NCBI GenBank assembly: GCA_964386195.1
Contig: CAYLTE010000003.1
Location: 99 to 64,098 of the forward strand
Source: an uncultured Burkholderiales bacterium
Lineage (GTDB): Bacteria; Pseudomonadota; Gammaproteobacteria; Burkholderiales; SHXO01
DNA: 64,000 nucleotides
Direction: 5' to 3'
Shown one piece after another: positions 15,398 to 64,000 of this stretch (position 1 is the stretch's first letter; each line of letters opens with the position of its first letter). Position numbers and translations under genes: made by a program. The notes beneath the pieces were generated by a model. That model had not been told where the DNA came from. It ran no database searches and saw nothing but the letters and a program-made list of their open reading frames with translations.

Positions 15398-15805
15398 TCA
15401 CACCTTCCTTTCTGTCGGCAGAGGGGGCAGCGGTTGCCAGCCAATTAGTTTTGGTCCGCAATGCTCAATGAATGACCGGTGCTCGTCTTGCCATTGCTCA
15501 GACGGTTCCGGGTAGTTCATTTCGGCAAGCGGTTGTTTCTTCCCTAGTCCGCGCCACAAACCATTAGTCACCAGAACAAACTCGTTTTCTGGCGCAGTCT
15601 CAATCGGCATCCACCCGCCATCATCCTTCTCCGCAAGCGCGGCGGTGATGCGGGCGCGACGGTTCCACATTTCTGGCTCAGCGCAAGCAGCGCATTCCTC
15701 ACACTCGACGTAATGCCAGTCTTTGCCGTCGCCTGTCTTGCCGAGACTTCTCGACACCAGTGCGCTCCCACAAAACGGGCACGGCAGCAGTTCATCGTTT
15801 GCCAT
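15398..15805 (-). CDS. Lar-like restriction-alleviation zinc-ribbon fused to a DUF551-like C-terminal domain
   Basis: N-terminal LLPCPFCGS...YVECEECAAC matches the recalled Lar family pattern. C-terminal GGWMPIETAPENEFVLV is DUF551-like. GAAGGAG RBS. Confidence 0.68.
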   Translation of the reverse strand: MANDELLPCPFCGSALVSRSLGKTGDGKDWHYVECEECAACAEPEMWNRRARITAALAEKDDGGWMPIETAPENEFVLVTNGLWRGLGKKQPLAEMNYPEPSEQWQDEHRSFIEHCGPKLIGWQPLPPLPTERKV

Positions 15806-16859
15806 GTTCGGACTCCTTCTTCCCGGCAGTGGCGCGGAGTAGGGCAGCGTTACGTTCGACGGATTCTTGCTCTGCATCGTGATACTGTGGAAGCAGTTTC
15901 CCGCCGCAATACTGGCACCATGCTGCATCGTTTTGATGCGGCCCGCCATCTGTAAATTCAAACACATGCCCGCAGGATGTGTTCCACGGCCCATCGGAAT
16001 CCTGCATCCACACGCAATGTGATTCTGCCACCGGCACCCGCACATGCGTCTGCTCGGATTGGGGTGCAGGCAGTATTGTGTCGCCAATATACGACGCGCC
16101 GACCGGCCCCATCGGGACCTTGCTGTAATCCTCTACATTGACCTGATCGGCTGCGCGGGTGATGGCTTCGCGGCACATCGCTATCACAGCATGGTCGCCT
16201 CGTTCTTTCTTGTTTTTGATGCATTCAACCAGAATACCCTTGCAAATCTCCGCCGCCCGCAGCATCCCCTCACGCACTCCTGACGGCGGGGCGGTGTAGA
16301 GGGGGCGTAACTCGTAATCCGCCCTGTCTTTAAGACACTTAGCTGTAGCCTCGTCTGCGTGTTGCCAAATTGACGGCCCTTCTTCTGGATCAATATAGCG
16401 TTGCTGCCACGCCACCGGCTCCCCCTGCGGCTGCGCTTCCTGCCAGTAGGCGCATCGTTGCTGATTGCTGGCGGCACACTTGCACGGAGGGGCTACGCAA
16501 CGACCCTGCGGCTGCGCGGAAAGGGCTTTGCGGCAATCAATCAGCAATCGCTCCAATTCTCTCGGCGGCATACTCATGTGTAGTTCAGCCGCAATGCTGG
16601 CGGCCCGTCGCTGCAAATACTCGGCGTCTATGCGGGCGTCCAGCCGCTTCACTAGTTCCTCGCGCTCACTCATGGCTTTCTCCTTTGACTGCGCGGCGGT
16701 GAGGGTGGCAAACATGGTTACAATATCTTTGCGACAATTAGCCCTCTCGTCATCAAGTCGCTTACATTCTTCTCCGTGTGCTGTTTCGTAATTCGCTTGA
16801 ATTGCCTCAAGCTCGTCTAACAGCGCCACCAGCGCGTCGGTGTCAGCGGGGGCGGTCAT
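15792..16859 (-). CDS. hypothetical Cys-rich protein (355 aa)
   Basis: Long ORF in the operon with ATGA coupling downstream; coiled-coil N-terminus; no family recognised. Confidence 0.75.
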   Translation of the reverse strand: MTAPADTDALVALLDELEAIQANYETAHGEECKRLDDERANCRKDIVTMFATLTAAQSKEKAMSEREELVKRLDARIDAEYLQRRAASIAAELHMSMPPRELERLLIDCRKALSAQPQGRCVAPPCKCAASNQQRCAYWQEAQPQGEPVAWQQRYIDPEEGPSIWQHADEATAKCLKDRADYELRPLYTAPPSGVREGMLRAAEICKGILVECIKNKKERGDHAVIAMCREAITRAADQVNVEDYSKVPMGPVGASYIGDTILPAPQSEQTHVRVPVAESHCVWMQDSDGPWNTSCGHVFEFTDGGPHQNDAAWCQYCGGKLLPQYHDAEQESVERNAALLRATAGKKESEHGKR

Positions 16860-20152: not shown

Positions 20153-20734
20153 TCAGTCCTCCAACCGCAGCCCGCGCTGCTGCGCGATTGCGATAAATGT
20201 CGGTATCATCAGCTTGGTTAACGTCCGATCTGCCGCATGCGTCTCCCAATGCTTGATGATCCGCCCCAACGGCCACCAGCGACAGCCGGAAGCAACATAG
20301 GCCACGCCACCAACATCGCACAGCGCGCGCCGATAGCCGTCCACGTGCCCTAAGTCTATCGCCCATGTGACCCCGTCGCCGAGCTGGACCCGGTTGCCGA
20401 GCGTGACCCCGTCGCCGAGCTTGACCCGGTTGCCGAGCGTGACCTCGTCGCCGAGCTGGACCCGGTTGCCGAGCGTGACCTCGTCGCCGAGCGTGACCCA
20501 GTCGCCGAGCGTGACCTCGTCGCCGAGCTTGACCCAGTCGCCGAGCTTGACCCAGTCGCCGAGCTTGACCCGGTTGCCGAGCTTGACCCGGTTGCCGAGC
20601 GTGACCCCGTCGCCGAGCGTGACCCCGTCGCCGAGCGTGACCCGGTTGCCTGCTGCGCACTGCGGATGCCCCGGACTCACATACCCGCCTGAAGCGTTTT
20701 TGTCCCAGCTACGAATAATGGCTGCGGTCAGCAT
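20153..20734 (-). CDS. hexapeptide-repeat (beta-helix-type) protein, 193 aa
   Basis: About 16 consecutive xVxLGD/N hexapeptides (NRVTLGDGVTLGDGVTLGNRVKLG...), flanked by unique N- and C-terminal domains. Confidence 0.8.
   Translation of the reverse strand: MLTAAIIRSWDKNASGGYVSPGHPQCAAGNRVTLGDGVTLGDGVTLGNRVKLGNRVKLGDWVKLGDWVKLGDEVTLGDWVTLGDEVTLGNRVQLGDEVTLGNRVKLGDGVTLGNRVQLGDGVTWAIDLGHVDGYRRALCDVGGVAYVASGCRWWPLGRIIKHWETHAADRTLTKLMIPTFIAIAQQRGLRLED
20369..20650. repeat. 18-bp tandem repeat array, ~15.7 copies, two interleaved unit types
   Basis: Units gacc(c/t/a)cgtcgccgagc(g/t)(t/g) and gacccggttgccgagc(g/t)t, read directly. In frame with the 20153-20734 CDS. Confidence 0.95.
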
Positions 20735-20735
20735 G

Positions 20736-21101
20736 TCAGCCCCTTTGTTGTGCCTGCATGGCATAGAACTGCCGCGCATGGGCCAGGATTGCGTCAGCGT
20801 GCGTCAGCACTTCCTCGTGCTGAGCCTTGACGGTCTTCTCCGTGCACCGGCCGGGCGTCTGCAGCACGGTTGCGAAAAAGTCCCCGCGGCCGCTGCCCAT
20901 CCCCAGCGCGTGCACGTGGAAGGTATCGCCCTGCCAGATAACGCGCGCCACGGTGCAGATACCGCCGTTGTAACCCTTCGCAGTCTCGATCTGCAGAACA
21001 CTCTTGCCCGGCTTGCCTTCGCGCCCACCATGGGCGACCACATCCGGGATATCGATCTGCGTCAGTGCGCGCCAGCCGTTTTTTCCTTTGGTCAGTTCCA
21101 T
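20736..21101 (-). CDS. hypothetical protein (121 aa)
   Basis: ATG at 21099-21101 with AGGAG RBS. Confidence 0.7.
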   Translation of the reverse strand: MELTKGKNGWRALTQIDIPDVVAHGGREGKPGKSVLQIETAKGYNGGICTVARVIWQGDTFHVHALGMGSGRGDFFATVLQTPGRCTEKTVKAQHEEVLTHADAILAHARQFYAMQAQQRG

Positions 21102-21754: not shown

Positions 21755-22135
21755 TCACATCCGCACCTGCATCACCTTGCCGGCATGCACGCCACGCGCC
21801 ACCTTGAACCCGGACACGTGCCGGCCCTCGGCGACGCACTGCCGTACGTTGCGCTTTTGCGTGCTGCCCTCGACGTGCTCCGGGTTTACGCACCAGCCGT
21901 TGTTGCAACTGTGCGCGCCTACCTTACGCCGGGCCGCATTCTTGCCCCAGCGCATGCCGTGCACAAACTGGGCGATGAACCTCGCAACCGTGATCCACTT
22001 CGCCTTGCCGGCGAGTCTGACCGCGATACGGGGCCGGTTGACGTTGTTGTAACTCCCGGTCCAGCGCCAGCACTCGCCCTCCGGGACGGAGTTAGCTAGC
22101 AGGCGCTGCACCGGGTCTGCATAGACCTTGGCCAT
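21755..22135 (-). CDS. HNH homing-type endonuclease
   Basis: ECWRWTGS...AHSCNNGWCVNPEHVEGSTQKRN (HNH_3-like pattern). Confidence 0.85.
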   Translation of the reverse strand: MAKVYADPVQRLLANSVPEGECWRWTGSYNNVNRPRIAVRLAGKAKWITVARFIAQFVHGMRWGKNAARRKVGAHSCNNGWCVNPEHVEGSTQKRNVRQCVAEGRHVSGFKVARGVHAGKVMQVRM

Positions 22136-22737
22136 TACTCAGCGCCCTCCACCTGCAGCGGTTGCCGGTAGTCGTCGCATGCTTCGTTCGGGCACAGTGG
22201 CGCGCCCATGTCCAGCCACTTCGCCGTAACGCGCACGGTATAGCCACAGACTGCGCATTCACATTTCTTCAGGCGTGTTGTTTGTTTCTTGTCGCCGTTG
22301 GTCATGCTTTGCAGCTTGGCATGAGGATACGCCCCCAGGGTCTCGACTATGGCGCGCAGCTTCACCTCCAGCGCTTCGCCGGCATGCGTGCTTGTCATGC
22401 GTCCTTCCAGACCAATCGCCGTCGCGCAGCGCTTGAAGTCCTTGCCATGCTTCGCTTCGAGACCGACCGTTGCATGCACAAGCTCATGGGCCAGAACGTC
22501 CAGCACGCGCACCGGGTCCGCAAGGGCGGGACTGATGAACACCTCGAATACTTTACCCTCGCTTGCCTTGTCACTCCAGCACTCGCCAATACGTTGCTTC
22601 TTCTTGGCCAACGCCGACTTGGACGGCCAGCCGCATGTGACCTTGACGTTGTCCGGGACCGTATGCCCGGCCTCATGGAACACCGGCCGCAGTGCTGCTA
22701 TGCCGGCCTCCAGCCATGCTTCACGTGTTTGCGTCAT
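22135..22737 (-). CDS. SprT-like zinc-metalloprotease-fold protein with C-terminal zinc ribbon
   Basis: LAHELVHATVG (HExxH) plus CECAVCGY...CPNEAC. Confidence 0.72.
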   Translation of the reverse strand: MTQTREAWLEAGIAALRPVFHEAGHTVPDNVKVTCGWPSKSALAKKKQRIGECWSDKASEGKVFEVFISPALADPVRVLDVLAHELVHATVGLEAKHGKDFKRCATAIGLEGRMTSTHAGEALEVKLRAIVETLGAYPHAKLQSMTNGDKKQTTRLKKCECAVCGYTVRVTAKWLDMGAPLCPNEACDDYRQPLQVEGAE

Positions 22738-22895
22738 GCTGCCTCCCGGTTCAGTTTGCGCACACGCGCCAGCGCTACGCGCTTGCTGCTGCAGCGCTGG
22801 ATTACTTCCGACGTGCATCCGGATTCACTGCGCTTTCGCACAGTGTAGCCGCGCGCCTCTTTTTGGATGAAATACGGACCGCCTAAAATGTTCAT
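22734..22895 (-). CDS. small basic ORF (53 aa), not in the ORF track
   Basis: ATGA overlaps at both ends (22892-22895 and 22734-22737). Product MNILGGPYFIQKEARGYTVRKRSESGCTSEVIQRCSSKRVALARVRKLNREAA. Confidence 0.55.
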   Translation of the reverse strand: MNILGGPYFIQKEARGYTVRKRSESGCTSEVIQRCSSKRVALARVRKLNREAA

Positions 22896-44867: not shown

Positions 44868-47800
44868 ATGGCCCTTGATCCGTTCGGCCCGAGCGAAGGT
44901 CTCGATCCGTCCGTCCCCGTAGCTGGCCTCGATCCTTTCGCACCTGACCCCGCCGCCCCGGGTGCGTTCAGTAAAGGCATCCGTGTCGGCGTTGGCGGTG
45001 TCAAGTCTACACTCTACGGCACGGGCGCGCTTGCCGCCCGCGTGGTGGGGGCGAAAGATCTTGAGCAGGCCGCGCTTACTAAAGCCGCTGCAGCGCAGGA
45101 AGAAGTCGCTGGCGACATTCAGACGATCGAGCAGGTGGATTGGACGGATCCGAGTTCCATTGCGAACCAGTTCAAGTTCCTGCTCGGACAGGCGATCCCC
45201 TCGATCGCGACCACTGTTGCCGGCGGTGTCGTTGGCCGCGGTGTCGGCACCGCACTGTCCCGACGCATGGCCGCCCCGGCTGCCGCACAGGTACAGCGTG
45301 CGAGCACGATCGCCGGCGCAGCAGTCCCTAGTTTCTCAATGGGGGCAGGCAGCATCTTCCCGGAAGCTCTGGAGACTGGTGCTGAGAATCCTGCCGCCCG
45401 CGCCATTGCCGGCGGTACCGCAACCGCCGCACTGGATCTGCTTCCCATCCTGGCCGCTGAGCGTTATTTGAAAGCCGCCGGTAAAGGCGGGGTGGGCTCG
45501 CTACTGAAGGGTGCTGCCAAGGGCGCTCCGGTTGGTGCCGTGCTGGAAGGCGCACAAGAGACCGCACAGTCTGCCGTGGAACGCCTGGCCGCAGGACTGC
45601 CACTGAGCGGTCCCGAGGCACTGTCCGACTATCTCAACTCGTTTGCCGGTGGTGCCGTGCCGGGCTCCGTGATTGGCGCCGGTGTTGGTGCAGCCCGCGG
45701 GCGTCGTGGTGCACAACCCACACCCGAGCCGTTCCAGCCCCCAGCCGCGCCGCCGGTTGAGGAGCAGCCGCAGCCCCTGCCGGAGATTCTGCAAGGACCG
45801 GCGCTGGAGCAGCAGTTGTCTGACCAGGCGCTGTTCGCATCACTGAACCCGCCGGCAGACGTGCTGCCGCCCGCCCCGGATGCAGGCCCCGAGGTCACGC
45901 CGCAGCCTGGCTACAATCGCGCGATGGCGCCTGTGGCACAGGAGGCGGATTTTACTACGCTTGAAACGCTCCGGGCGCAGAAGCGCGATGCTGACGCGCG
46001 CCAGGCAGAACTGACTGCAGAACTGTCACGACCGGAAGGGCAGCGCCGTACCAAGCAGGAGATCACGCGCGAGCAGATGGACTTGCGTACCCAGATTGGG
46101 GCGCTTGATACCCAGATTGGGCAGTTGACACAGACGATCCGTAACCGCTTCGCCGCCGAGGATGCGGCTGCTGCGATTGAGGCTGCGCCGGATAAGGCGC
46201 CGGCGGCCGAACCCTTCTTCACCGAGTCTGGAGCGTTTAAACGCCCACAAGGTCAACCGACCGAGGCCGCGGAGCTTGAGGTCGCCCGCCAGAAACGATC
46301 GGTGGGCGCGTTGGTCTCCGCTCGCGAAGCCAAGCTGCTGCGGGATGCTGACCGGGCAGCACCGCCGGCGCCCGCAGTCATGCCGGTCACTACAAACCAG
46401 CCGCGCGAGCGCTTCAAGCAGGAGTCCCCGGCACGCCGTGCGGAAGTGATCGAAGGCGTGGCCGCGCAGTCGGTGGAGGATCACCTGAAGGGGCTCAAGT
46501 TCCGCAAGGGCACCGAGCCCCAGGCGGCCCAAGCACTGCGTAAAGCAGTGGCGGAGGCGGCGACTGCGCCGACCATTGAGGCCGCAGAGAAGGCGATCTT
46601 TGACGCTGCGATCAAGGCCCTGTCCGGCAAGGTGAACAAGGCGGACGCAGAGACCTTCGCGGAGAGCGTCGCCAAGGACGTTCGCTCCGCGCCGACGTTT
46701 TACTCGCAAGCCGCTGCCGCACAGCGCACTGACGTGATTGAGTTCTCGCACTGGGGCGACGCTACCACGCAGACCGATCCCGCGCGTATGGGCACCGGTG
46801 TCAAGGGCGCTGACTGGGCTCTCGCACAGGAAGTGGGGCTTCAGTACACCTCTGCCGTGGTCCGCGGTGCGCCGTACCGCGAGCCCGCGGTGCAGGGTAA
46901 GCCGGAGCGCGTGGGCACGCTGGCTGCAGATCGCGTTTACTCCGCCCGGACCGACGACCCGCTGCTGATCCAGGCGAAGGCAGACCTGCGTGCGCAGGGC
47001 ATCTTCAACGATGCGCTTGCGTGGATGCAGTATGCCAAGGCGGTTCGTGACCTGGGCTACGACGCGATGCTGTACGCCAATGGGCAGCTTCGTATCTTCA
47101 CGCCACAGCGCGTTCGCGCAGCCTCTCGCGCTGCTGTAGCGCCGAAGAAGCTGTCTGACCTGACGGCAAAGCTGGCGCCGATCGTAGCGACACATGCAGC
47201 GGCTGGCGGATCGTCCACCAATCTCGTGACAGGGCAGGATCTTGGCGGCACGGACAACTATACCGTATCGGTGCACAAGAACCGAGAGCGCACGTTCAAG
47301 CAAGCCCCGACAGAGGCGGACCTGCGCAAGTACGTCGAGGACAATGCCGACCTTCTGGCAGATCCGCAGAACATCCTGGGTACCTGGTATAACCGAGCGG
47401 ACAAGCTGCACTATGTTGACGTGTCCCGCACCGTGCGCGACCTCGCGACCGCACTGGACCTCGGGCGCAAGAACAAGCAGCACGCGATCTTCTACCTGGG
47501 CACGTTCGATGAGATCCCAGTGGGCAACGCGGAGGTCTACGGGCTGTCCCAACTCTACGCACAGCAGATGAGCCTGCCGCCGGCCGTCGCGCTGGAGTAC
47601 AAGCAGGTGCCGGTTGAGCGCATGACACTGGTGGCGGAGGCGTACGACTGGCTCCGCGACAATGCGACCGCGCTGGATGTTCGCATCCAGAACGTGTACG
47701 AGACCTTTGTGCAGGAGACAGAGAAGCAGTTCGAGTTCATCTCCAGGCACATCCGCATCGAACCGTGGCGCCAGGAGGGGCAGCCCTACGCGAACTCCCG

Positions 47801-50800
47801 CGCCATGATGGACGACGTTGCCAAGAACAAGCACCTGTGGGTGTATGAAGGTGGTGATCCGCATCCGTTCATGACGGCAGAGCAGAACTGGAAGTTCCGC
47901 GCAGTGCACGATCTGTTCGGCCACGCGAAGACCGGCTTCGAGTTCGGCCCCCGCGGAGAGTTCAACGCGACTCGCGCGCATGCGCAGATGTACACCGAGG
48001 AAGCCTGGCCCGCGTTGGTCACCGAGACGATCGGGCAGAACGCCTGGGTCAACTTCGGCGCGCAGAACGCAGGGCTTCCGGCGGCGCAGCGCGCGTATGC
48101 TGTGCAGAAGGCGGACCTGCTCCCGGAGAGCATGTGGCGTGACCTGCTGGAAGATCCGATCGAAGCGCGCGTCGCGTCTGTTGACCAGCACGAGCGAGTC
48201 ATGGCGGAGAAAGGTCAGCGACTGATCGACCGCATCCGTGGGATGATCGGAGACGCGCCAGTTGACATCAACGTGTTCGAGGCGAAGCCCGGGCAGCCGC
48301 TGGGTTACTACCAGGGGCGTGTCGGCAAGATGAAGGCAGTCATCGCGATGGCGACAAACGCCAAAGATGAACTGTCCATCGCGGACCACGAAGGCTTCCA
48401 CGCGCTTGAGGACATGGTGCTGGAGGGCCGCGAGAAGAGCATCATCAGTCGGCAGTTACGGCCCGGGGCGACACTGTTCAAACGCCTCGCCGAGAAGACC
48501 CGTGCGTATGACGCTGCGAACGGCACGCGACTGACGGACGAGATCCTGTCGGTACCGCAGGAGGCTCGCGCCTACGGGTACGAGTTCTGGCGTCGCGGTG
48601 AACTGCAGGTTGATGGCGCACTGGCAACCGTGTTCGAGAAGATTCGCAACTTTATCGAGCGGATTGTCAACTTTATCGACGGGCTGGGGTTCCAGTCGGT
48701 CGAGGATATCTTCCGCATGATCGAGCTTGGTGCGATGGCGAGCCGGGCGAAGCGGGCTGGTGGGGCGAATGCGCAGTACTCTCAAGCCAGTGCGGACGGT
48801 CAGATTACAATTACGCGCCCGGTAGATGGTTCATACAGCATAAAACTGAACGGGCGCGAAATCGGTACGGCGAATTTATCCGAGAACAAAGACTATCTGG
48901 TAAGCGTTATTATCGAGGAAAAATATCGGCGTAAAGGCTACGGTTCTACGCTGTATGATTTTATTGAGCAAGACATCGGCCGACGGCTGATACCAAGCCC
49001 CCGGCACCAATCCCCGGCGGCGAAAGCGCTTTGGGCAAAACGGAATAAGACCGCCGCCGACCAAACCAAAACAACCGCATTCAAGAAGTGGTTCGGCGAT
49101 AGCAAGGTGGTGGACGCCGAGGGTAAGCCGCTGGTGGTGTATCACGGCACGGTTGGCGACTTCGCTGAATTCAAGACTACCCGCACCGGAGAATTTGGCC
49201 CGGCAATCTACACTACCGCTGACGGTAACGAAGCCGCGCAGTATGGTGTTGGTGCCGGTTCTCGTCATCTGTCGCAGCCGCCAGTAAGCGTGATGCCAGT
49301 ATATGTGAGCCTGCAAAATCCATTTGTTGATGGCGTGGAGGCGTATTGGAAGCGCTTTGGCCGCGAGGACAGCACTGACGCAGAGGCTGTTCAGCGCGCC
49401 ATCGCCGCAGGCTTTGACGGCGTTATTGCCACCCGCAAGGAGTGGAATGATAAAACGCTGACGCACTACGTCGCCTTCAAACCCGAGCAGATCAAATCTG
49501 CCGTAGGCAACCGCGGCACGTTCGATCCGAAGAACCCGAACATTCTCTACTCCAAGGCCGCGATGCAGCTTGACCGGGAGATGGCCAAGGGCGGGCAGGA
49601 GCGCGCGCAGGAGTATCTGGCGGCAGCCGATCTCATCAACGACGCCTATCAACACGGCCCGGACAACGTGTTCAAGACCGCGTTTGGCGCCCTCAAGTCG
49701 GAACTCGGTGGCGACCTCTCTCGCTGGTTCAAGCGCAACATCCTGACACCGAACTTCACCAGCCGCTACTCGGAGGGCTTCAAGAACGTCTTCACGACGC
49801 TGAACACCTACGACCGGTACCGCTCGATCCTCATCAAGACCATGCTGAAGGAGAAGATGCCGGCATGGTACGACGCGTCTGCAGACGATCAGAAGGTAAC
49901 CTTCAAGGCCCTGCTGGACCGCACGGTCAAGGGCATGACGGTGGACTCCAGCGAGTACCAGGCGCTGATGGCGAACCTGACGACCGAGCAGCGGGCACTG
50001 TTCCGCTCGGCCTCCAGCATGATCGAGGGCTTCCTGCGCGCGGAACTGGAGTCGGACAAGGTGACCTATCGCCAGCTTCTAACCACCCCGGGCGAGTATG
50101 AGAAGTGGCTGGCAGACCGCACGACCCAAGTGCAGGAGATGATCGACAAAGGCTACGTCCCCCTGCGCCGCTACGGAGACCACACCGTCGTCATCATCAA
50201 GACGATCACCGGCAAGGACGGCAACCCGCAGGATCTGGTCGTCGCGCGCCAGGGCTTCACACGCGCAGCAACGGCAGAAGTCGCAGGCCAGATGTACAAG
50301 GACGAGATCGCGCGCACCGGTGCGGACCTTCGCGTTGAGGTGGGCTACCAACACAAGGCCGCCCGGGACACGACGATCTCGGTGCAGCAGTTCCTTGACA
50401 CCGCGCGCCGCAACGGCGTACCCCTGAACCAGCTTGAGCGCGAGCGGATCGTCAAGGCGCTGACCTCAGCGGAGTCGCTGACGCGAAACCGCATGCTGCA
50501 TCGCGAGGGCACTGCAGGTTACTCGGAGGACGGGCTCCGCGTGCTGAACGAGTTCGGCGTCGGCATGGCGGGCAAGATGGCCTACGCGAAGTTCGCCTCC
50601 GCCGTGGATGCCGCGTCTGAGGGATATCGCGTGACTGCCGACATCATCGACAACGAACCGATGATCTCCGTGGACGAGTCGATCAACGCGGTCACCGGCA
50701 AGCCGAACAATCTCTGGGCTGCGGAAGGCCCGAAGGCCGGCTTCCACCGCAACCTCGCGGACGAATTGACCGACTTCGTGCTGGTCCCCGATCACACGGG

Positions 50801-52343
50801 GGGATGGTCTCGCAACCTCCGTGGTGCGGCGATGATGTACTTCCTCGGCGGTTCCATCTCCGGTGCGATGGTCAACACCATGTCCGTGCCGATGCTGGTC
50901 GTGCCGCAACTGTCCATCAGCACCAACTACTACAATGCGATGGCGACGACGCTGTCGGCATGGAAGACGACCTGGGCGAACCAGGCGGTCCTGCGTGACA
51001 CCGCGAAGCTGAAGGATGCAGTGGCCTATCCTATCCCCGACATTGATCGCGTGCCGGGGCTGCGGCAGGCGCTGGTGCAGGCGGCGGAGGACGGCCGCAC
51101 GATGGACACCGAGATCCACGGTATCATGGGCATGGCGCAGGGCACGATGTACTCGCAGTCTCGCGGGGTTCAGCGCGCGATCGAGACCTGGATGGCGCCG
51201 TTCCGGATCTCGGAGCAGACCAACCGGATTACAGCGTTCATCGCTGGCTACAAGGTGGGGCAGGAGAACAAACTCACCGGCCGCGAACTGTACAACTATG
51301 CGGCGGAAATGGTTGATAGCACTCAAAATAATTATAATGAGTCAAACAGGCCCGGTATCGCGCGGAACCACATTTTCGCGCTGATGTATATGTTCAAGTC
51401 GTTCCCGATGTTCATGGTCGAGGCGGCGGTGCTGATGCACAAGGCCAACCCGGCGGCAGCCCGCAACATGCTGCTGGGCATGGTGGTCATGACCGGCGTG
51501 CAGGGCCTGCCGTTCGCTGAGACGCTGATGGACCTGATCGACACGATTGCGCAGAAGATCTTCGGCTCGCCGTTCAATAGCCGGCGTGCGATCCGCAACT
51601 TCGTCAAGCAGGGTTCGGAGGCGATCGTGGGATACGACCTGTCCAGCCTGGTGCTGCGCGGGGTCATCAACGACGTGCTGGGCATGAGCGTGGCCTCGCG
51701 GATCGGCGCGGGCGACTTTGTCCCCGGCACGCGCCTGGGCACTGCAGATGCGGAGCAAGGGCGCCTGCTGGAGGACATGCTCGGCGCCCCGTACGCGATG
51801 CTGAAGGACACCCTTACCAACGCTGGTAAATTGGTGGGCGGGGTCACCACAGGCGACTGGCGCGACGCAGTGGACGCGCTGCGCGCTGGCGGCCCGGTCG
51901 CGGTACGGAACATCATCAAAGGCACTGAGCAGTTGACCGAGGGCTACGCCTCCGACAGCAAGGGGCGCCGACTGATCGATGTGAGCACCCCGGAAGCCCT
52001 GTGGCAGTTGACCGGGATGGCGTCTGCGCGGCTCGCGAAGGCGTACGACTACGACCGCATCGACAAGCAGACGATGGCGTTCTACAGTCAGGTCCGCACG
52101 GACATGCAGCGGCAGTTGGTGAAGGCGGTTCGAGACGGCGACGAGGCCAAGGTGCAGGAGACTTGGGATGCTGCGCGCGCGTGGGATGAGACCTACCCGG
52201 ATATGCCGCTGCGCCTGAGCCCCTCGGCGATCCGCCGCGAGGTGGTGATGTCCGGGCTGCGGCTGGATGAGCGGACGATGCGCCTGCTGCCCCGAGCACT
52301 GCGAGGAACCAGCCTCGCGGCCGAGGGTATCGAAGGCGAGTGA
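44868..52343 (+). CDS. giant (2491 aa) multi-domain virion protein of the polyvalent / PLxRFG type
   Basis: One uninterrupted ORF. HExxH (ADHEGFHALED, nt 48387-48401). GNAT-like IIEEKYRRKGYGSTLY. ART-like block LVVYHGT...GPAIYTT...HYVAFKPEQIKSAVGNRGTFDPKNPNILYS. YVPLRRYGDH, a PLxR(F/Y)G motif (nt ~50160). Several hydrophobic helices in the C-terminal third. Confidence 0.9.
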   Translation: MALDPFGPSEGLDPSVPVAGLDPFAPDPAAPGAFSKGIRVGVGGVKSTLYGTGALAARVVGAKDLEQAALTKAAAAQEEVAGDIQTIEQVDWTDPSSIANQFKFLLGQAIPSIATTVAGGVVGRGVGTALSRRMAAPAAAQVQRASTIAGAAVPSFSMGAGSIFPEALETGAENPAARAIAGGTATAALDLLPILAAERYLKAAGKGGVGSLLKGAAKGAPVGAVLEGAQETAQSAVERLAAGLPLSGPEALSDYLNSFAGGAVPGSVIGAGVGAARGRRGAQPTPEPFQPPAAPPVEEQPQPLPEILQGPALEQQLSDQALFASLNPPADVLPPAPDAGPEVTPQPGYNRAMAPVAQEADFTTLETLRAQKRDADARQAELTAELSRPEGQRRTKQEITREQMDLRTQIGALDTQIGQLTQTIRNRFAAEDAAAAIEAAPDKAPAAEPFFTESGAFKRPQGQPTEAAELEVARQKRSVGALVSAREAKLLRDADRAAPPAPAVMPVTTNQPRERFKQESPARRAEVIEGVAAQSVEDHLKGLKFRKGTEPQAAQALRKAVAEAATAPTIEAAEKAIFDAAIKALSGKVNKADAETFAESVAKDVRSAPTFYSQAAAAQRTDVIEFSHWGDATTQTDPARMGTGVKGADWALAQEVGLQYTSAVVRGAPYREPAVQGKPERVGTLAADRVYSARTDDPLLIQAKADLRAQGIFNDALAWMQYAKAVRDLGYDAMLYANGQLRIFTPQRVRAASRAAVAPKKLSDLTAKLAPIVATHAAAGGSSTNLVTGQDLGGTDNYTVSVHKNRERTFKQAPTEADLRKYVEDNADLLADPQNILGTWYNRADKLHYVDVSRTVRDLATALDLGRKNKQHAIFYLGTFDEIPVGNAEVYGLSQLYAQQMSLPPAVALEYKQVPVERMTLVAEAYDWLRDNATALDVRIQNVYETFVQETEKQFEFISRHIRIEPWRQEGQPYANSRAMMDDVAKNKHLWVYEGGDPHPFMTAEQNWKFRAVHDLFGHAKTGFEFGPRGEFNATRAHAQMYTEEAWPALVTETIGQNAWVNFGAQNAGLPAAQRAYAVQKADLLPESMWRDLLEDPIEARVASVDQHERVMAEKGQRLIDRIRGMIGDAPVDINVFEAKPGQPLGYYQGRVGKMKAVIAMATNAKDELSIADHEGFHALEDMVLEGREKSIISRQLRPGATLFKRLAEKTRAYDAANGTRLTDEILSVPQEARAYGYEFWRRGELQVDGALATVFEKIRNFIERIVNFIDGLGFQSVEDIFRMIELGAMASRAKRAGGANAQYSQASADGQITITRPVDGSYSIKLNGREIGTANLSENKDYLVSVIIEEKYRRKGYGSTLYDFIEQDIGRRLIPSPRHQSPAAKALWAKRNKTAADQTKTTAFKKWFGDSKVVDAEGKPLVVYHGTVGDFAEFKTTRTGEFGPAIYTTADGNEAAQYGVGAGSRHLSQPPVSVMPVYVSLQNPFVDGVEAYWKRFGREDSTDAEAVQRAIAAGFDGVIATRKEWNDKTLTHYVAFKPEQIKSAVGNRGTFDPKNPNILYSKAAMQLDREMAKGGQERAQEYLAAADLINDAYQHGPDNVFKTAFGALKSELGGDLSRWFKRNILTPNFTSRYSEGFKNVFTTLNTYDRYRSILIKTMLKEKMPAWYDASADDQKVTFKALLDRTVKGMTVDSSEYQALMANLTTEQRALFRSASSMIEGFLRAELESDKVTYRQLLTTPGEYEKWLADRTTQVQEMIDKGYVPLRRYGDHTVVIIKTITGKDGNPQDLVVARQGFTRAATAEVAGQMYKDEIARTGADLRVEVGYQHKAARDTTISVQQFLDTARRNGVPLNQLERERIVKALTSAESLTRNRMLHREGTAGYSEDGLRVLNEFGVGMAGKMAYAKFASAVDAASEGYRVTADIIDNEPMISVDESINAVTGKPNNLWAAEGPKAGFHRNLADELTDFVLVPDHTGGWSRNLRGAAMMYFLGGSISGAMVNTMSVPMLVVPQLSISTNYYNAMATTLSAWKTTWANQAVLRDTAKLKDAVAYPIPDIDRVPGLRQALVQAAEDGRTMDTEIHGIMGMAQGTMYSQSRGVQRAIETWMAPFRISEQTNRITAFIAGYKVGQENKLTGRELYNYAAEMVDSTQNNYNESNRPGIARNHIFALMYMFKSFPMFMVEAAVLMHKANPAAARNMLLGMVVMTGVQGLPFAETLMDLIDTIAQKIFGSPFNSRRAIRNFVKQGSEAIVGYDLSSLVLRGVINDVLGMSVASRIGAGDFVPGTRLGTADAEQGRLLEDMLGAPYAMLKDTLTNAGKLVGGVTTGDWRDAVDALRAGGPVAVRNIIKGTEQLTEGYASDSKGRRLIDVSTPEALWQLTGMASARLAKAYDYDRIDKQTMAFYSQVRTDMQRQLVKAVRDGDEAKVQETWDAARAWDETYPDMPLRLSPSAIRREVVMSGLRLDERTMRLLPRALRGTSLAAEGIEGE

Positions 52344-53776: not shown

Positions 53777-55222
53777 ATGATTCGGCTCAATAACACCACT
53801 CGCAAACTGATCGCTGCGCTGGGCGGTTCAGTTGTTGTAAACCAACTGCCGATCTCGGTCAGCTTCTCTGACCATACTGCCGCGTCCTATACAGGGGCGA
53901 TGCAGTTGTCGGCTACGAATGACGCAAATCCGGTAGATATCTGCAACGCGCCTGCAAGCGGTGCAGTGCGTGACATTGATTATATCAGTGTGAAGAACCG
54001 GGACACCGCGCCCGCCACGATCACGATCTCATATGACGACAACGGTAGTGTCTCTGCGATCGTAGCGATCTTGCTTGCGGCCGGTGATCACCTGACTTAT
54101 GTACACGGCTCCGGCTGGCAGGTGCTGAATGCCAGCGGGCAGCTACTTACTTCAGGCGCCCAGGGCGCCCAGGGCGAGCGCGGCGCAACCGGTGCTGCAG
54201 GCATGGATGGGCTGGATGGCGAAGACGGAATGACCGTCGTCGGGCCGCAAGGCGCAACCGGGGCCACCGGCGACACTGGCCCGCAGGGGGTGCAAGGGCC
54301 AATAGGCCCGCAAGGCGCGCCCGGCCTGGATGGCGAGGATGGTAGTGACGGCATGCCTATCCCGGGGCCACAGGGCGTTCCTGGCCCGCAGGGACCGCAA
54401 GGGGCAACTGGCGCCACTGGCGATACGGGCGCTACTGGTGCCACCGGGGATACTGGGCCGCAAGGTGATACGGGACCAATCGGGCCGCAAGGTATGCTCG
54501 GGCTAGATGGCGAAGATGGTAGTGATGGCATGCCCATTCCCGGACCGCAGGGCGCGACGGGGCCGCAGGGACCGCAAGGCGCTACTGGTCCTACGGGGGC
54601 TACCGGCCCGCAAGGTCCGATGAGCGTATCGATTCTCCCCGGAGAAGATGGGGAAGACGGGATTACTATCCCGGGCACGCAGGGCGGTGGCGGCGGCCCG
54701 AGCAGCATCGGCAAACATTCCGTATTTATTCCTGCGGCGGGCATGATCTCGCGGATCACTGCGGGTGCAGAGTATTCCCAGGGCGAGACGACCACCAATC
54801 GCATACAGATGGCCGGGTTTTTGTTTGACGGCACTACACAAGAGCACGTTCAGTTTTATCTTGGTGCGCCTAAAAGTTGGGATAAAGGCACGGTAGTCGC
54901 ACGCTTTCTTTATGCGCCGACTACGACTTCTTCTACCGCAACCCGTTGGGAAATTGCTGCACGGGCCTTCGGGGATGGTGATGCGCTCGATACTGCGTTC
55001 GGCACGGCAGTAGGTGTAGACACTAGCCATACTACGGCGAATCAAGTCGAGGTTTCGGCTTCGACCAGTGCGCTCACGGTCGCAGGTACGCCGGTGACAG
55101 ACGACCTCCTGATATTCCAAGTTAGCCGCGCGCCGGCAAACGCAGGAGATACCTACACAGCCGATGCGCGGTTACTTGGCGTCTGGGTAGACTTTACCAC
55201 TGACGCGGCTACGGACGACTGA
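53777..55222 (+). CDS. collagen-like tail fibre protein
   Basis: About 175 aa of GXY triplets (nt 54155-54690), interrupted by DGxDGxDG(M/I)x(I/V)PG modules, with globular N- and C-domains. Confidence 0.85.
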   Translation: MIRLNNTTRKLIAALGGSVVVNQLPISVSFSDHTAASYTGAMQLSATNDANPVDICNAPASGAVRDIDYISVKNRDTAPATITISYDDNGSVSAIVAILLAAGDHLTYVHGSGWQVLNASGQLLTSGAQGAQGERGATGAAGMDGLDGEDGMTVVGPQGATGATGDTGPQGVQGPIGPQGAPGLDGEDGSDGMPIPGPQGVPGPQGPQGATGATGDTGATGATGDTGPQGDTGPIGPQGMLGLDGEDGSDGMPIPGPQGATGPQGPQGATGPTGATGPQGPMSVSILPGEDGEDGITIPGTQGGGGGPSSIGKHSVFIPAAGMISRITAGAEYSQGETTTNRIQMAGFLFDGTTQEHVQFYLGAPKSWDKGTVVARFLYAPTTTSSTATRWEIAARAFGDGDALDTAFGTAVGVDTSHTTANQVEVSASTSALTVAGTPVTDDLLIFQVSRAPANAGDTYTADARLLGVWVDFTTDAATDD

Positions 55223-60706: not shown

Positions 60707-60710
60707 AACA

Positions 60711-60736
60711 GCGGCCTTCGGGCCGCTTTCTTTTTT
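60711..60736. terminator. bidirectional intrinsic terminator
   Basis: GCGGCC-ttcg-GGCCGC followed by TTTCTTTTTT on the plus strand and by TGTTTTATT on the minus strand. Confidence 0.8.
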
Positions 60737-60812
60737 GGTTGCGGGAGAGGGATTTGAACCCTCGACCCTCTGGGTATGAACCAGATGCTCTGCCAGGCTG
60801 AGCTATCCCGCG
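60736..60812 (-). tRNA. tRNA-Met(CAU) with initiator-type C1xA72 acceptor end but elongator-like body
   Basis: Hand-folded cloverleaf CGCGGGA-TA-GCTC-AGCCTGGCA-GAGC-A-TCTGG-TTCATAC-CCAGA-GGGTC-GAGGG-TTCAAAT-CCCTC-TCCCGCA-A-CCA. Confidence 0.85.
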
Positions 60813-60820
60813 ATTGATCT

Positions 60821-60896
60821 TGGCAGACACCCAGGGAATCGAACCCCGCGCAGTCGGATTTGGAGTCCAACTCGCCACCTTGGGACATTGGCGCCT
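60821..60896 (-). tRNA. tRNA-Trp(CCA)-like, with a defective D-stem
   Basis: Acceptor AGGCGCC/GGTGTCT (two G:U pairs). Anticodon arm TTGGA-CTCCAAA-TCCGA. T-arm CGGGG-TTCGATT-CCCTG. CCA encoded. D-stem TGTC/GCGA pairs at only 2 of 4 positions. Confidence 0.62.
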
Positions 60897-60912
60897 GCAG
60901 TACTTTTACAAC

Positions 60913-60989
60913 TGGTGCCCGAGGCATGGAGTCGAACCTGCGACCGTCCGCTTACAAGGCGGGTGCTCTACCGGCTGAGCTACAAGGGC
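60913..60989 (-). tRNA. tRNA-Thr(UGU)-like, with a bulged T-stem and two acceptor mismatches
   Basis: D-arm GCTC-AGCCGGTA-GAGC is perfect and the anticodon arm CCCGC-CTTGTAA-GCGGA pairs at four of five positions (27C/43A unpaired). T-arm GCAGG-TTCGACT-CC(A)TGC has an extra A. Acceptor GCCCTTG/CTCGGGC is mismatched at 5:68 and 6:67. Confidence 0.62.
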
Positions 60990-61120
60990 AAAATTAAGTG
61001 GGCACTCTCGCCCGGTCACGGTAGCAGTTCAGCACTATTTCTTGCCGCTTGCGCGACTCATGCCTGGAAGTCACCGTTTATCCGCTGAACAAGTCAGACT
61101 GCGCTCGCAGTAGAAAGTTC

Positions 61121-61174
61121 AAAAAGAACCTCCCGCGCGAGAGGAGGCAGTGCTTGGAGGGGCCGCGCGGGAGG
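61121..61174 (-). terminator. intrinsic terminator ending the primase operon
   Basis: On the minus strand, a perfect 11-bp stem CCTCCCGCGCG ... CGCGCGGGAGG with a 24-nt loop, followed by TTCTTTTT. Confidence 0.72.
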
Positions 61175-61223: not shown

Positions 61224-61289
61224 CTACCCCGCCTTGTTCAGCGCTTTCCGGATGTCGAACGGGACCAGATGTATTTTTTGTTTCATCAT
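61224..61289 (-). CDS. possible 21-aa peptide coupled to the primase stop
   Basis: AGGAGG lies 5 nt upstream of the ATGATG that overlaps the primase TGA. Product MMKQKIHLVPFDIRKALNKAG. Confidence 0.35.
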   Translation of the reverse strand: MMKQKIHLVPFDIRKALNKAG

Positions 61290-64000
61290 GCCTCCTGAGC
61301 AAGTTTGGTTGAGAACTCCGGGATATCCGCCCGGATCTTCCAGCACGGTACTTGCTGCCCGCTGGACAGGTCCGTGCCAGCCCCCAGGATCTTCCGATCG
61401 TCCGCGTTCAGCAGTATCCCTGCGTCGTACAACTCCTTCTTGATCTGGTTCGGGTTCTGGTGTTTCTTGCGGAGCCAGTGCATGATGTGCGACCGCGTGA
61501 TCCACAGGGTCGCATTGTCCTTCTCATAGCGCTGGGACAGCGCGCCTCGGGTCGGCCGGGCGTTGGAGGCGCTCATGCCCTCGTTCAGCTTGGTGACGAC
61601 CAGACGCTCGCCGACGTGCGCGTCCAGGTACTCGCCCAGGAGCGTCATGGGGGTCACGACGTTCGCTGCGACCTCACCGCGCATGCGCCGGGTCTCCTGT
61701 AGCAGCCAGGGGCGAATGCGCTCGGGATCGAACTGGATGATGCCCCACTGCTTCGCGAGGCGCCCGCCGATGAGTGTCAACGCCGCAGCTTGCGACCAGA
61801 ACCGTTCCTTCTTTTGCATCTGGAACTCGCGCTCCAGCCGCTCTATCTCCGCAGGAATCGCGACGCGCAGGTGATCCTGCTCCATGACGAGCCGGCGAAT
61901 ATATTCCCCGCCGGCGACGCCGTAGTGCTGCTCCACGTAGTTGTGCAGCAGCCCGGCGAACTCCAGGAACGGCGCGGACCGAGGGAACTCGAACTCGAAC
62001 AACCGCATCGACTCGGCTTCGGGGTTGACCTTGGCTTCCTGCAGTTTGGCGTTCAGGGGATCATTGCTGGAGGTCACGAGGATGGTTTGCCACTTCGCAC
62101 CCTCGCGGGTCTCGCGCGTACGGGTCAGCACGTCGCGCCCCTTGCCGGTGGGGATCATGTAGATAAGGTCGCGCAGCACATCGGGCTCGATCGTCGTGAT
62201 CTCGTCCATGTAGGCGGGGATGGAGTTGTACGTCCCGAGCCGCTCCACCCGCGCGTTGACCGTGGAGTCCTGCCCGATCCAGGTGTCCTTCCAGTAGCCG
62301 TAGACCGAGGCCATCATCTTGCCGCAGGTTGACTTGCCGATGCCGGTGTCGCCAAGCGCCGAGACGGTGAAGCCGTCGCGCCCGCAGAGTTGCAGCAGCG
62401 GGGCAGCAAAGGCAGTCAGCAGCATGAACGCGTGCGGCTCGCAGCCGGGGAGGTCGAACACTTGCGTGGCGGCGCTCCAGTCGGCCAAGTTCCCCTTCTC
62501 CTTGAAACCGTCCAGGAAGCTCGCCGAACGTGTAGCAGATCCCGCATGGATGATCTCGCCGGTCTTCAGATACATGCGGTCACCCAGCACGAACTTGGCG
62601 TTGTTGTCTTTCCACCCCATGCTGCGAAACAGCCGTCGCACCTTGGTTTCGAGTTTGACCTTGCGCAGGTATGCGTCCATGTACATCACCATTCGGTTTC
62701 GGATCAGCGGTTGAATATGCACGTCCCGGAGCGCCGCCTCGAATTCCGCGGGCTTCGCCAACAGGGACGACTGGATCGAGTGCTCCATCCAGCCTTCCTG
62801 CGGGAGGTAGTGGCGCATGCGGAACACTTCGTGCCCGACCGCTTCATCAAACAGCACGTCCGTGGGGAAGCAGTCGTACTCATAGATCTTGTGGAGGATG
62901 CCATCTTCCTCCACGAAGATACCGCCGCCTTCCTCGGGGGCACGGCGTGTGAACGGCGCGGGCGGGTTCGGGAGCGCGACCTGGATTACCGGGCCGGGTG
63001 CGCCTCCAGGGCTCGCCGGCGGGGCCGCCACAGAGATAGTCGGAGGCGCTGCGGACTTGATTTCTGCGCCCAACTGAACAGGAGACGATATTTTCCCGCG
63101 GAAAGGGCACGTCTCGCAGCCGCCAGGGTTGCGAGACTCGAACGTGCTGCAAAGTGTTGGCCCCAACGACTGAGACCGAATCTGCTGAATTTTCTGCTCA
63201 GTCTCGGCTTCGCTGTATCCGGCATAGCCTTTACTCCACTCATGGATGAGTTCATCGCCCTCAATCGAATGCGTCATCAACTGGATGCCGGCGTACCAGT
63301 AGGGCTCCGGGATGTCACCACGAGTGTCCCGCATGCGCGCCAGTTGCAAGCACTTGTCGGCGGCCTTCTGTGCGCTGCACGGCGGGAAGTCCCGCTGGAT
63401 CGCGAACTGCTCGTTCAGTGCCTCCTGCTTGGTCTCACGGGACTTGATCGTGTCCGGCGCCTTGACCTTATGCTGCTCCAGGGCGGCCATGACGCGGCGG
63501 TGAAAGTCCGCGTACACCAGATCCGGAGCGTCGGCAACCACTTCAACGGGCTTGGGGTTGTGTGCGTCCTTGCGATTGTAGGTGCCGACCGGACGCAGTA
63601 CTCGCGCAGAGTCACTCGTGCAGCCGTGGTCTGCCCGGAGCTTCAGGTGGATCGCCAGCGCCTTCAGTGCTGCTGCGGTCTGGTTCCACTGGGTCGGGTT
63701 GATCTCCTCGGTTAGCGTCCAGTAGACGTGGATGCCGTAGCCAGAAGAGACCACCATCGGCTGCGGTAGCCCGCTCTCTTCACAAAACTTGACCAACCCG
63801 TCCACCGCTTCAAGCTGATCGGCATACTTCGTGGGGACACCTGCCTCAACGTCCAGATCCGTCCAGAACGCTTTGAGCGCGCGGACATTCTTCTGGACGC
63901 GTACTTGCCGAATCGGCTCCCCCTTTTTATTGACGCCCATGATGAAGGGCTCACGGTACGCCGCGCAAGCATGATACGCGGTGACGCCTTGGGAGTCGAA
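61286..64000 (-). CDS. bifunctional primase-polymerase (AEP) / SF3 (D5-like) helicase, 5' end outside window
   Basis: AEP-like FWTDLDVE and SSGYGIHVYW; Walker A GDTGIGKSTCG; Walker B-like IPAYMDEIT. The frame stays open upstream of the first ATG (63940) to the window edge (…FDSQGVTAYHACAAYREPFI). Confidence 0.9.
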   Translation of the reverse strand, partial: FDSQGVTAYHACAAYREPFIMGVNKKGEPIRQVRVQKNVRALKAFWTDLDVEAGVPTKYADQLEAVDGLVKFCEESGLPQPMVVSSGYGIHVYWTLTEEINPTQWNQTAAALKALAIHLKLRADHGCTSDSARVLRPVGTYNRKDAHNPKPVEVVADAPDLVYADFHRRVMAALEQHKVKAPDTIKSRETKQEALNEQFAIQRDFPPCSAQKAADKCLQLARMRDTRGDIPEPYWYAGIQLMTHSIEGDELIHEWSKGYAGYSEAETEQKIQQIRSQSLGPTLCSTFESRNPGGCETCPFRGKISSPVQLGAEIKSAAPPTISVAAPPASPGGAPGPVIQVALPNPPAPFTRRAPEEGGGIFVEEDGILHKIYEYDCFPTDVLFDEAVGHEVFRMRHYLPQEGWMEHSIQSSLLAKPAEFEAALRDVHIQPLIRNRMVMYMDAYLRKVKLETKVRRLFRSMGWKDNNAKFVLGDRMYLKTGEIIHAGSATRSASFLDGFKEKGNLADWSAATQVFDLPGCEPHAFMLLTAFAAPLLQLCGRDGFTVSALGDTGIGKSTCGKMMASVYGYWKDTWIGQDSTVNARVERLGTYNSIPAYMDEITTIEPDVLRDLIYMIPTGKGRDVLTRTRETREGAKWQTILVTSSNDPLNAKLQEAKVNPEAESMRLFEFEFPRSAPFLEFAGLLHNYVEQHYGVAGGEYIRRLVMEQDHLRVAIPAEIERLEREFQMQKKERFWSQAAALTLIGGRLAKQWGIIQFDPERIRPWLLQETRRMRGEVAANVVTPMTLLGEYLDAHVGERLVVTKLNEGMSASNARPTRGALSQRYEKDNATLWITRSHIMHWLRKKHQNPNQIKKELYDAGILLNADDRKILGAGTDLSSGQQVPCWKIRADIPEFSTKLAQEA

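Follow-up and report, generated by a model that had tools for sequence, protein, structure and literature searches.

A phage tRNA cassette with an initiator-like tRNA of variant anticodon loop and a tRNATrp of non-canonical core

Introduction

Are tRNA genes that depart from the bacterial consensus in their stems, loops or core decaying copies, or are they working genes whose departures are kept? This question is raised by three adjacent tRNA genes, tRNA-Thr(UGU), tRNA-Trp(CCA) and tRNA-Met(CAU), in a 64 kb stretch of contig CAYLTE010000003.1 (the window, by which we mean the whole stretch of DNA that was analysed). The window comprises nearly the whole of the 64.9 kb contig, and the genome is that of a high-G+C tailed phage of about 65 kb. 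A preliminary description, obtained by folding the sequence by hand, had offered two answers: decaying pseudogenes, or altered variants that escape host nucleases cleaving tRNAs.

Phage tRNAs are increasingly viewed as tools of counter-defence. To our knowledge, the published examples are elongator tRNAs (Lys, Tyr, Arg and others). Evasion of anticodon nucleases by substitutions in the anticodon loop was described by van den Berg et al. 2023, and the same survey reported that phages generally avoid encoding tRNA-fMet (PMC10264068). Tests of phage T5 tRNAs against the PARIS and retron defences are cited in PMC11245113. Altered phage tRNAs that evade host nucleases are therefore a known idea, while an initiator with U32/C38 and a tRNATrp with a rebuilt core appear undescribed, as no account of either class was found in the literature searched. 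The locus studied here points to such an initiator class in more than 100 viral contigs, altered exactly at the nucleotides of the initiator loop and at those flanking the bond cut by the nuclease VapC. It also points to a large viral tRNATrp family, missed or labelled as pseudo by standard models, which appears to be under strong structural selection and which bears both on the annotation of viral tRNAs and on the question of which parts of the tRNA core are indispensable.

An initiator-like tRNA with a variant anticodon loop

ARAGORN called three tRNA genes in the window, and none besides. They lie on the minus strand at the coordinates obtained by hand folding and between two terminator-like hairpins (Table 1), as had been described. 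Met and Thr also passed the Rfam tRNA model that was used as a second check, and Trp failed it. We consider the three genes very probably functional and selected phage tRNAs and not pseudogenes, the Thr copy of the window being the weakest case. The pseudogene reading is unsupported because each oddity recurs in other viral sequences together with base-pair covariation.

The acceptor stem of the Met gene reads C1xA72, G2:C71, C3:G70 and G4:C69 and is followed by A73. The mismatch and the initiator-type ends had been recognised correctly, and 1:72 was the only position that the Rfam model left unpaired. Formylation is determined by C1xA72, A73, G2-C71, C3-G70 and G4-C69 (PMC9976931). Every one of these acceptor determinants is present, and the anticodon CAU is combined with A73. 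In the remainder of the molecule we found C11:G24, A26, an anticodon stem with U29:A41, G30:C40 and G31:C39, and the anticodon loop UUCAUAC (U32, C38), the canonical loop being CUCAUAA. Three classical initiator features are absent, namely three G:C pairs at 29-31:39-41 (the middle pair G30:C40 is present), a purine11:pyrimidine24 pair (A11:U24, here C11:G24), and the CUCAUAA loop with its C32-A38 pair and A37.(G29-C41) triple. Therefore, we call the gene initiator-like and not a standard tRNAfMet.

The altered positions are of special interest. In the E. coli initiator the middle G:C pair alone is indispensable and the flanking pairs may vary, and alpha-proteobacteria naturally have A:U at 29:41 (PMC5389676). 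In crystals, E. coli tRNAfMet has an initiator-specific loop conformation that is defined by two contacts, the Cm32-A38 pair and the A37.(G29-C41) triple (PMC2528185). VapC of Shigella and Salmonella cleaves tRNAfMet between A38 and C39 (PMC4105405), and the same cleavage was reported for VapC homologues of Leptospira, Haemophilus and the alpha-proteobacterium Bosea (PMC8522696). The window tRNA has C38 in place of A38, which is the 5' base of the cleaved bond. This location of U32/C38 beside the VapC bond is the feature most relevant to nuclease escape and was absent from the preliminary description.

With E. coli tRNAfMet of the metZ/metY type the window tRNA shares CAU, C1xA72, G2:C71, C3:G70, G4:C69, A73, G30:C40 and G31:C39, the ends CGCGGG.../...CCCGCAACCA and the T loop TTCAAAT. 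However, it has U32/C38 instead of C32/A38, U29:A41 instead of G29:C41 and C11:G24 instead of A11:U24, plus A26. The '1st A:U' initiators of alpha-proteobacteria and some mycoplasmas likewise vary 29:41 and retain 30:40 and 31:39, but they combine a purine:pyrimidine pair A29:U41 with the canonical CUCAUAA, whereas U29:A41, U32 and C38 occur together in the window (PMC5389676).

IMG/VR was scanned for GGTTCATACC followed, after 25-29 bases, by CCCGCAACCA. As such pattern scans fix part of each sequence, the family sizes given here and below are lower bounds and the frequencies are approximate. The variant-loop pattern was found in 101 contigs, which reduce to 84 distinct tRNAs, and at many loci the variant initiator is the sole tRNA. 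Pairing among the 84 amounted to 89-100% per stem position (92-100% in acceptor positions 2-7 and in the anticodon and T stems, 89-93% in the D stem), with many pair types in the anticodon and T stems. At 1:72, where 67 of the 84 have a mismatch, the bases are C:A in 43, U:A in 17, G:A in 14 and A:A in 10; 11:24 is A:U in 38 and C:G in 25, and 29:41 is U:A in 30, A:U in 26, G:C in 18 and C:G in 9. In a comparison of both loop types among viral initiator-like tRNAs, 29:41 was other than G:C in 72 of 89 with the variant loop and in 88 of 117 with the canonical loop (G:C in 17 and 29, respectively). The U:A pair at 29:41 and C11:G24 had led to the description of the Met gene as a hybrid. Both features are real, but the label is overstated, because non-G:C pairs at 29:41 occur at the frequencies just given, C11:G24 is found in 25 of 84 variant-loop tRNAs and alpha-proteobacteria have A:U at 29:41; these features are ordinary among viral initiator-like tRNAs.

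In bacterial species genomes the pattern was present in only 23 stretches among 185,579, scattered over unrelated taxa. All four of these sites that were inspected adjoin phage genes, which code for portal, terminase and head proteins, a DnaB-like helicase and an antiterminator, a NinI-like phosphatase and a head protease. By this comparison of sequences the variant loop seems essentially virus-specific and nearly absent from bacterial chromosomes outside prophages.

Natural pairs of tRNAs isolate the change in the loop (loci are referred to by L numbers). The 77-nt tRNAs of L061 and L311 differ only by C32U and A38C, and in the pairs L052/L282 and L027/L369 the differences are confined to 26, 29:41, 32 and 38. 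The Met genes of the window and of L106 agree in the anticodon stem; their differences lie at 26, 32 and 38 and at five more positions elsewhere in the tRNA. Moreover, the same 18-nt arm AUCUGGUUCAUACCCAGA is carried by at least five different backbones. Natural pairs in which nothing but 32 and 38 differs make it possible to test directly whether the variant resists VapC, is formylated and can initiate.

At variant-initiator loci tRNA-Arg(ACG) is the second most frequent tRNA (20 copies). The variant initiator directly adjoins it in many viral contigs, often with Gly(UCC) (L006, L012, L014, L027, L033, L041, L042, L048, L052, L060, L063, L091, L092, L094, L099 and L102).

A viral tRNATrp family with a rebuilt core

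The Trp gene of the window has A1-U72, G73, A8 instead of U8, A9, one linker A and a variable region of 4 nt, and it keeps G18G19, TTCGA and the canonical anticodon loop CUCCAAA. The D stem had been described as paired at 2 of 4 positions, which is correct in the standard register. When the 3' strand is shifted by one base, UGUC/GGCG pairs at 4 of 4 positions (U.G, G-C, U.G, C-G), so that the earlier count does not hold for this register, and the shifted stem is part of a truly non-canonical and conserved core. The anticodon stem has 6 bp, the sixth pair being a G:C that forms in the shifted D register. The standard core of bacterial tRNATrp (U8, a 4-bp Watson-Crick D stem, a 5-bp anticodon stem and a 5-nt variable loop) is thus lacking. 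The identity set for tryptophanyl-tRNA synthetase consists of the CCA anticodon, G73 and A1-U72 (PMC9976931) and is complete in the window tRNA.

The gene scored below the 29-bit gathering score of the Rfam tRNA model RF00005, and its best match within the Rfam clan was tRNA-Sec (RF01852). We ruled out that it is a tRNA-Sec, as the 32.6 bits lie below the threshold of 47 and the anticodon is CCA and not UCA. A 6-bp anticodon stem and a shortened variable region are common to tRNA-Sec, tRNA-Pyl and the window Trp, but the latter differs from both in its CCA anticodon, 7-bp acceptor, 4-bp D stem, G18G19 and TTCGA.

A first scan with the anticodon arm and T loop fixed returned 16 distinct homologues with the same odd D arm. 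The proposed structure pairs 98.9% of their alignment cells, and two-sided changes are seen in 7 of 7 acceptor pairs and 3 of 5 T-stem pairs. The anticodon stem is extended by a sixth pair, which is GC in 9, AU in 4 and GU, UA and UG in one each. The shifted D stem is 100% paired and almost invariant, whereas the register assumed in the preliminary description pairs 50% of the D-stem cells. In a second scan the D arm was fixed and the anticodon left free, and at least 120 contigs with 90 distinct sequences were recovered. In this family of at least 90 distinct sequences the anticodon is CCA in 88, G73 is found in 86 of 87, and position 8 is A in 58, C in 29 and never U. All 90 have the sixth pair (GC 57, CG 17, AU 8, UA 4, UG 3, GU 1), the D stem is UGUY/GGCG, the variable region has 3-4 nt and the acceptor is paired at 7 of 7 positions in 84 of 87. 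Nine of ten family members from other loci are missed by Rfam. Folding of the single Trp sequence gave z = -0.14 and a minimum-energy fold that is not a cloverleaf (-26.7 kcal/mol, compared with -22.0 kcal/mol for the proposed cloverleaf and -14.3 kcal/mol for the register assumed before).

The single cultured example is found in Bacillus phage Mater (KM236245, 133743-133819; L693, 1493-1569), where the gene is annotated as tRNA-OTHER/'tRNA-Pseudo' with codon UGG. ARAGORN does not call this gene. It shares the D-arm motif CAUGUUCCAAGGCUGGCGA, the CCA anticodon, G73 and the sixth anticodon-stem pair with the window Trp, although Mater is a 164 kb member of the Herelleviridae that infects a Firmicute and the window an unrelated 65 kb high-G+C phage. 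The strand given in the feature table of L693 is opposite to the strand on which ARAGORN places the neighbouring tRNAs.

The conservation and covariation in these alignments show the Trp gene to belong to a non-canonical tRNATrp family that is conserved in viruses, and not to be decaying. Decay of one or more of the three genes to pseudogenes or uncharged tRNA-like remnants would agree with the Rfam score of Trp, with its predicted fold and with the 'tRNA-Pseudo' annotation of the Mater homologue. Nevertheless, the anticodon, G73 and the T loop are retained in at least 90 distinct sequences, all of the helices are preserved and compensatory changes in them are abundant; the Met family behaves likewise. 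As decay would not preserve pairing, we regard this explanation as very unlikely; its remaining points concern the Thr gene and are given with it below.

A different explanation takes the unusual positions of Met and Trp as changes in decoding. The initiator arm would shift the discrimination by initiation factor 3 and the P site towards phage starts (GUG, UUG, weak or leaderless), and the Trp core would alter the reading of UGA, by analogy with the effects of the D arm (Hirsh) and of anticodon-stem length on tRNATrp. We know of no experiment on a 6-bp stem, and the window gives no sign of recoding, as long open reading frames (ORFs) are open in the standard code and most stops in a crude ORF set are TGA (33 of 55). 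On the other hand, 29:41, 32 and 38 build the loop conformation that is thought to underlie initiator discrimination (PMC2528185, PMC5389676), and the D arm of the Trp family is both nearly invariant and unusual and is followed by a 6-bp anticodon stem. A link between the anticodon-stem length of tRNATrp(CCA) and UGA reading has been reported (PMC13092985). Taken together, altered decoding seems unlikely to us.

The tRNAThr and its T-stem bulge

The Thr gene of the window has G1-C72 and C2-G71, the mismatches U5xC68, U6xU67 and C27xA43 and a bulged A between 62 and 63. The bulge and the two adjacent acceptor mismatches had been reported correctly, and the Rfam model agreed with the reading, leaving 5:68, 6:67 and 27:43 unpaired and showing one extra base in the T stem, on its 3' strand. 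The elements for threonyl-tRNA synthetase (G1-C72, C2-G71 and the anticodon) are intact. Among 109 distinct viral Thr(UGU) genes that share the anticodon arm of the window, six (the window, L104, L485, L554, L586 and L587) have a bulge between 62 and 63. The T stem of these six is 100% paired, three of five pairs (50:64, 51:63 and 52:62) change on both sides, and the bulged base may be A, U, C or G. This recurrence together with a paired and covarying T stem indicates that the bulge is inherited and either tolerated or selected.

The acceptor stem varies among the relatives. The Thr gene of L485 has the same ends, GCCCUUG...CCAUGCCUAGGGCA, and shares U6xU67, but has U5-A68, and the acceptor stems of the L104 and L106 genes are fully paired. 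The private U5xC68 beside U6xU67 and the weak folding energy of the window Thr could be taken as signs of decay, whereas the compensatory changes that flank the bulge speak against it. Loss of pairing or identity elements without conservation in relatives, as expected of pseudogenes, was not found in the three tRNAs except for U5xC68, the only change that fits recent damage.

The toxSAS enzyme FaRel2 reads G1-C72, C2-G71, G4-C69 and Pu5-Py68 of tRNAThr and tRNAGly (PMC11245113). It was considered as a cause of the acceptor mismatches, as a lead only, and was set aside because the lineage already has C4-G69 and U5xC68 occurs in the window only.

Possible function of the cassette

We think it most likely that all three genes are expressed and that their tRNAs are processed and charged. 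Each belongs to a tRNA lineage carried by viruses, in which selection very probably keeps the departures from the bacterial consensus. The Met gene is a predicted initiator, its acceptor stem pointing to formylation, with an anticodon arm that is remodelled at the nucleotides of the special loop (C32U, A38C and U:A in place of G29:C41). The Trp gene keeps its identity set on a rebuilt core, which lacks U8 and has a D stem rich in G.U pairs, an anticodon stem of 6 bp and a shortened variable region. During infection the cassette would sustain initiation and the decoding of Trp and Thr codons by tRNAs that host enzymes cut or modify poorly. The phage also codes for the RNA ligase RtcB, as had been stated, and RtcB would act as a second line by re-ligating cut tRNAs. 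That host enzymes directed at tRNAs act poorly on these because of the departures, and that RtcB provides a reserve for repair, is in our opinion a serious possibility that falls somewhat short of probable. Of the two answers offered at the outset, the altered variants are favoured. Escape from nucleases is plausible; the position of the substitutions argues for it in Met alone, while for Thr and Trp the argument would be by analogy, as some toxins recognise the acceptor stem or the body of a tRNA (PMC11245113).

Like the nuclease-evading tRNAs described before (PMC10264068), the window Met is encoded by a phage, has the same anticodon as the host target and shows a substitution beside a known cleavage bond, A38|C39; it carries the anticodon of a known nuclease target, since tRNAfMet is cut by VapC (PMC4105405, PMC8522696). 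No class of initiator variants is described in that survey, however, and the window Thr and Trp differ in the T stem, acceptor stem or core and not in the loop (PMC10264068). More generally, many tailed-phage lineages might carry two classes of tRNA, an initiator rebuilt at 29:41, 32 and 38 as a dedicated countermeasure to the widespread attack of VapC-type toxins on initiation and a tRNATrp whose rebuilt core escapes or decoys a host factor. We offer this extension only tentatively and consider it rather doubtful. If it were true, the initiator would lose its specific loop conformation and the A38|C39 site of VapC and keep the determinants for formylation and the P site, the tRNATrp core would evade or decoy a host factor that recognises the tRNATrp body, and the cassette of the window would join both classes with RtcB.

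Several observations weigh against escape and, for Thr, against function. The anticodon loops of Thr (CUUGUAA) and Trp (CUCCAAA) are canonical, so that the escape route by loop mutation does not apply to them, and we know of no enzyme that is defeated by their core changes. The end chemistry of VapC-type PIN nucleases may not suit RtcB. Canonical-loop initiator-like tRNAs occur in at least 120 viral contigs, the loci that were not selected by their loop comprise 13 canonical, 2 variant and 1 intermediate, and the closest relatives of this phage carry the canonical loop; therefore, the variant loop is optional. The mismatch U5xC68, adjacent to U6xU67, is found in the window Thr and in no relative, and this tRNA folds no better than shuffled sequence (z = +0.68). 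The window Thr copy may thus be impaired, with U5xC68 a recent and possibly harmful change. The comparisons cover viral contigs and bacterial species genomes.

Some of these observations would also be expected if the cassette served plain translational supply. In this explanation the phage provides more initiator, Trp and Thr(ACA/ACG) tRNA, either as compensation for codon usage or dosage or as replacement after a general decay of host tRNAs, and the peculiarities are neutral markers or phage-specific adaptations to processing. Canonical-loop initiators are at least as common in viruses as the variant, the Thr and Trp loops are canonical, and the cassettes of relatives vary freely (none, Thr+Met, Pro+Leu+Met or Pro+His+Leu+Met), which is typical of dispensable accessory genes. 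ACA (12%) and ACG (36%) make up 48% of the Thr codons in the ORFs of the window, a value that is indecisive without the host genome. However, codon bias cannot account for two of the three genes because Met and Trp each have a single codon. Neutral drift leaves unexplained the tRNA pairs that share 75 of 77 positions, the exceptions being 32 and 38, those that differ only within the anticodon arm, the AUCUGGUUCAUACCCAGA arm on at least five backbones, and the near absence of the loop from bacterial chromosomes. We hold supply as the sole role to be rather unlikely.

Genomic context and relatives

The cassette is located at the 3' end of a leftward block of replication genes and is flanked by hairpins that resemble intrinsic terminators (Table 1). 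The hairpin downstream of Met is common to the cassette and the converging late genes on the plus strand. The start of the DUF927 primase gene lies beyond the end of the window, and its full product (P0001) has 949 aa. Pfam also identified a family-A DNA polymerase, helicases, a PD-(D/E)XK nuclease and endonuclease VII among the encoded proteins.

Table 1. Location of the tRNA cassette and associated features in the window
Feature	Coordinates	Strand	Remarks
tRNA-Thr(UGU)	60913-60989	minus	77 nt, CCA encoded; ARAGORN; Rfam 50.2 bits
tRNA-Trp(CCA)	60821-60896	minus	76 nt, CCA encoded; ARAGORN; under Rfam tRNA threshold
Initiator-like tRNA-Met(CAU)	60736-60812	minus	77 nt, CCA encoded; ARAGORN; Rfam 64.1 bits
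Terminator-like hairpin with T run	61128-61148	minus	closes upstream primase operon; kept in L103-L107
Leader of about 138 nt, from upstream hairpin to tRNA-Thr	60990-61127	minus	blocks kept in L103, L104 and L105
G+C-rich hairpin with T runs on both strands	60710-60727	both	bidirectional terminator-like site
RtcB RNA ligase, 404 aa	12432-13646	minus, same as tRNAs	Pfam PF01139, E=3.4e-127, 425.6 bits
DUF927 primase/helicase-like gene	61286-63940	minus	directly upstream of cassette; Pfam PF06048

The leader contains the conserved blocks TTGTTCAGCGGAT.AACG and GGCAAGAAATAGT.CTGAAC, which hold a GTTCAG/CTGAAC inverted repeat. It matched no Rfam family, no sigma-70-like promoter was found in it, and it is missing in L106 and L107, where Thr lies directly 3' of the hairpin. 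The leader may be a promoter or a processing leader.

The DUF927 primase served as the marker for finding related phages. No relative was detected among cultured phages by megablast with 24 kb of the window, and a search of viral contigs with the primase alone gave none either, so that an alignment-based search was required there. The primase has 220 homologues, many on contigs of 60-69 kb. In the closest relatives, L104 (88% primase identity) and L106 and L107 (80%), Thr(UGU) is followed after 7-8 nt by Met(CAU), and Trp is lacking. Other relatives have Pro+Leu+Met, Pro+His+Leu+Met, Pro+Leu+Tyr+Leu or Thr alone at the same spot, and in most of them it is empty. The Trp gene of the window and its upstream spacer form a clean insertion ahead of a GATCAAT spacer, which L104 has between Thr and Met. 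By these alignments the cassette is evidently modular. The same trio is found in the unrelated viral contig L460 (2467-2711), where Thr(UGU), an initiator-like Met and the odd Trp are adjacent. The Met loop of L460, CUCAUAC, combines C32 with C38 and is intermediate between the canonical and the variant loop, and the discriminator is U73.

In L108 (70% primase identity) a tyrosine integrase (PF00589, 7396-8433) is located downstream of the primase, at the spot of the tRNAs in the window. This, the presence of the variant initiator in prophages and the tRNA-dependent lysogeny known from actinobacteriophages (PMC10865867) would agree with a role in lysogeny, either as copies associated with attP or as replacements for a host tRNA gene destroyed by integration. 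However, a non-exhaustive scan of 30 ORFs of the window revealed no integrase family, and the three tRNAs are complete, of different isotypes and none is beside a recombinase, which makes this explanation extremely improbable.

Among phages that are cultured or named, Thr and Met genes of this kind were found only in EBPR siphovirus 2 (L001, JF412297, 4275-4350). Its Met has the loop UUCAUAC and the same C1xA72 ends as the window, and the T loop UGCAAAU (G at 55), a variant that is also present in a few other Met members with the variant loop. Initiator-like tRNAs with other 1:72 mismatches (U1xU72, C1xU72) were observed in the relatives L112 and L113 (3214-3324) and L104 (3783-3858), and the gene of L106 is without an encoded CCA end.

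Some further genes of the window were recorded. A 268-aa protein with a NUDIX domain is encoded immediately 3' of RtcB (11624-12430, minus). Three more minus-strand ORFs had Pfam matches, to a hexapeptide-repeat transferase (20153-20779), to SprT-like below the threshold (22135-22818) and, weakly and below the threshold, to Lar (restriction alleviation; 15398-16087). On the plus strand, an ORF of 2491 aa (44868-52343) and a 481-aa protein with collagen triple-helix repeats (53777-55222; PF01391, E=5.9e-21) are presumably tail or fibre components.

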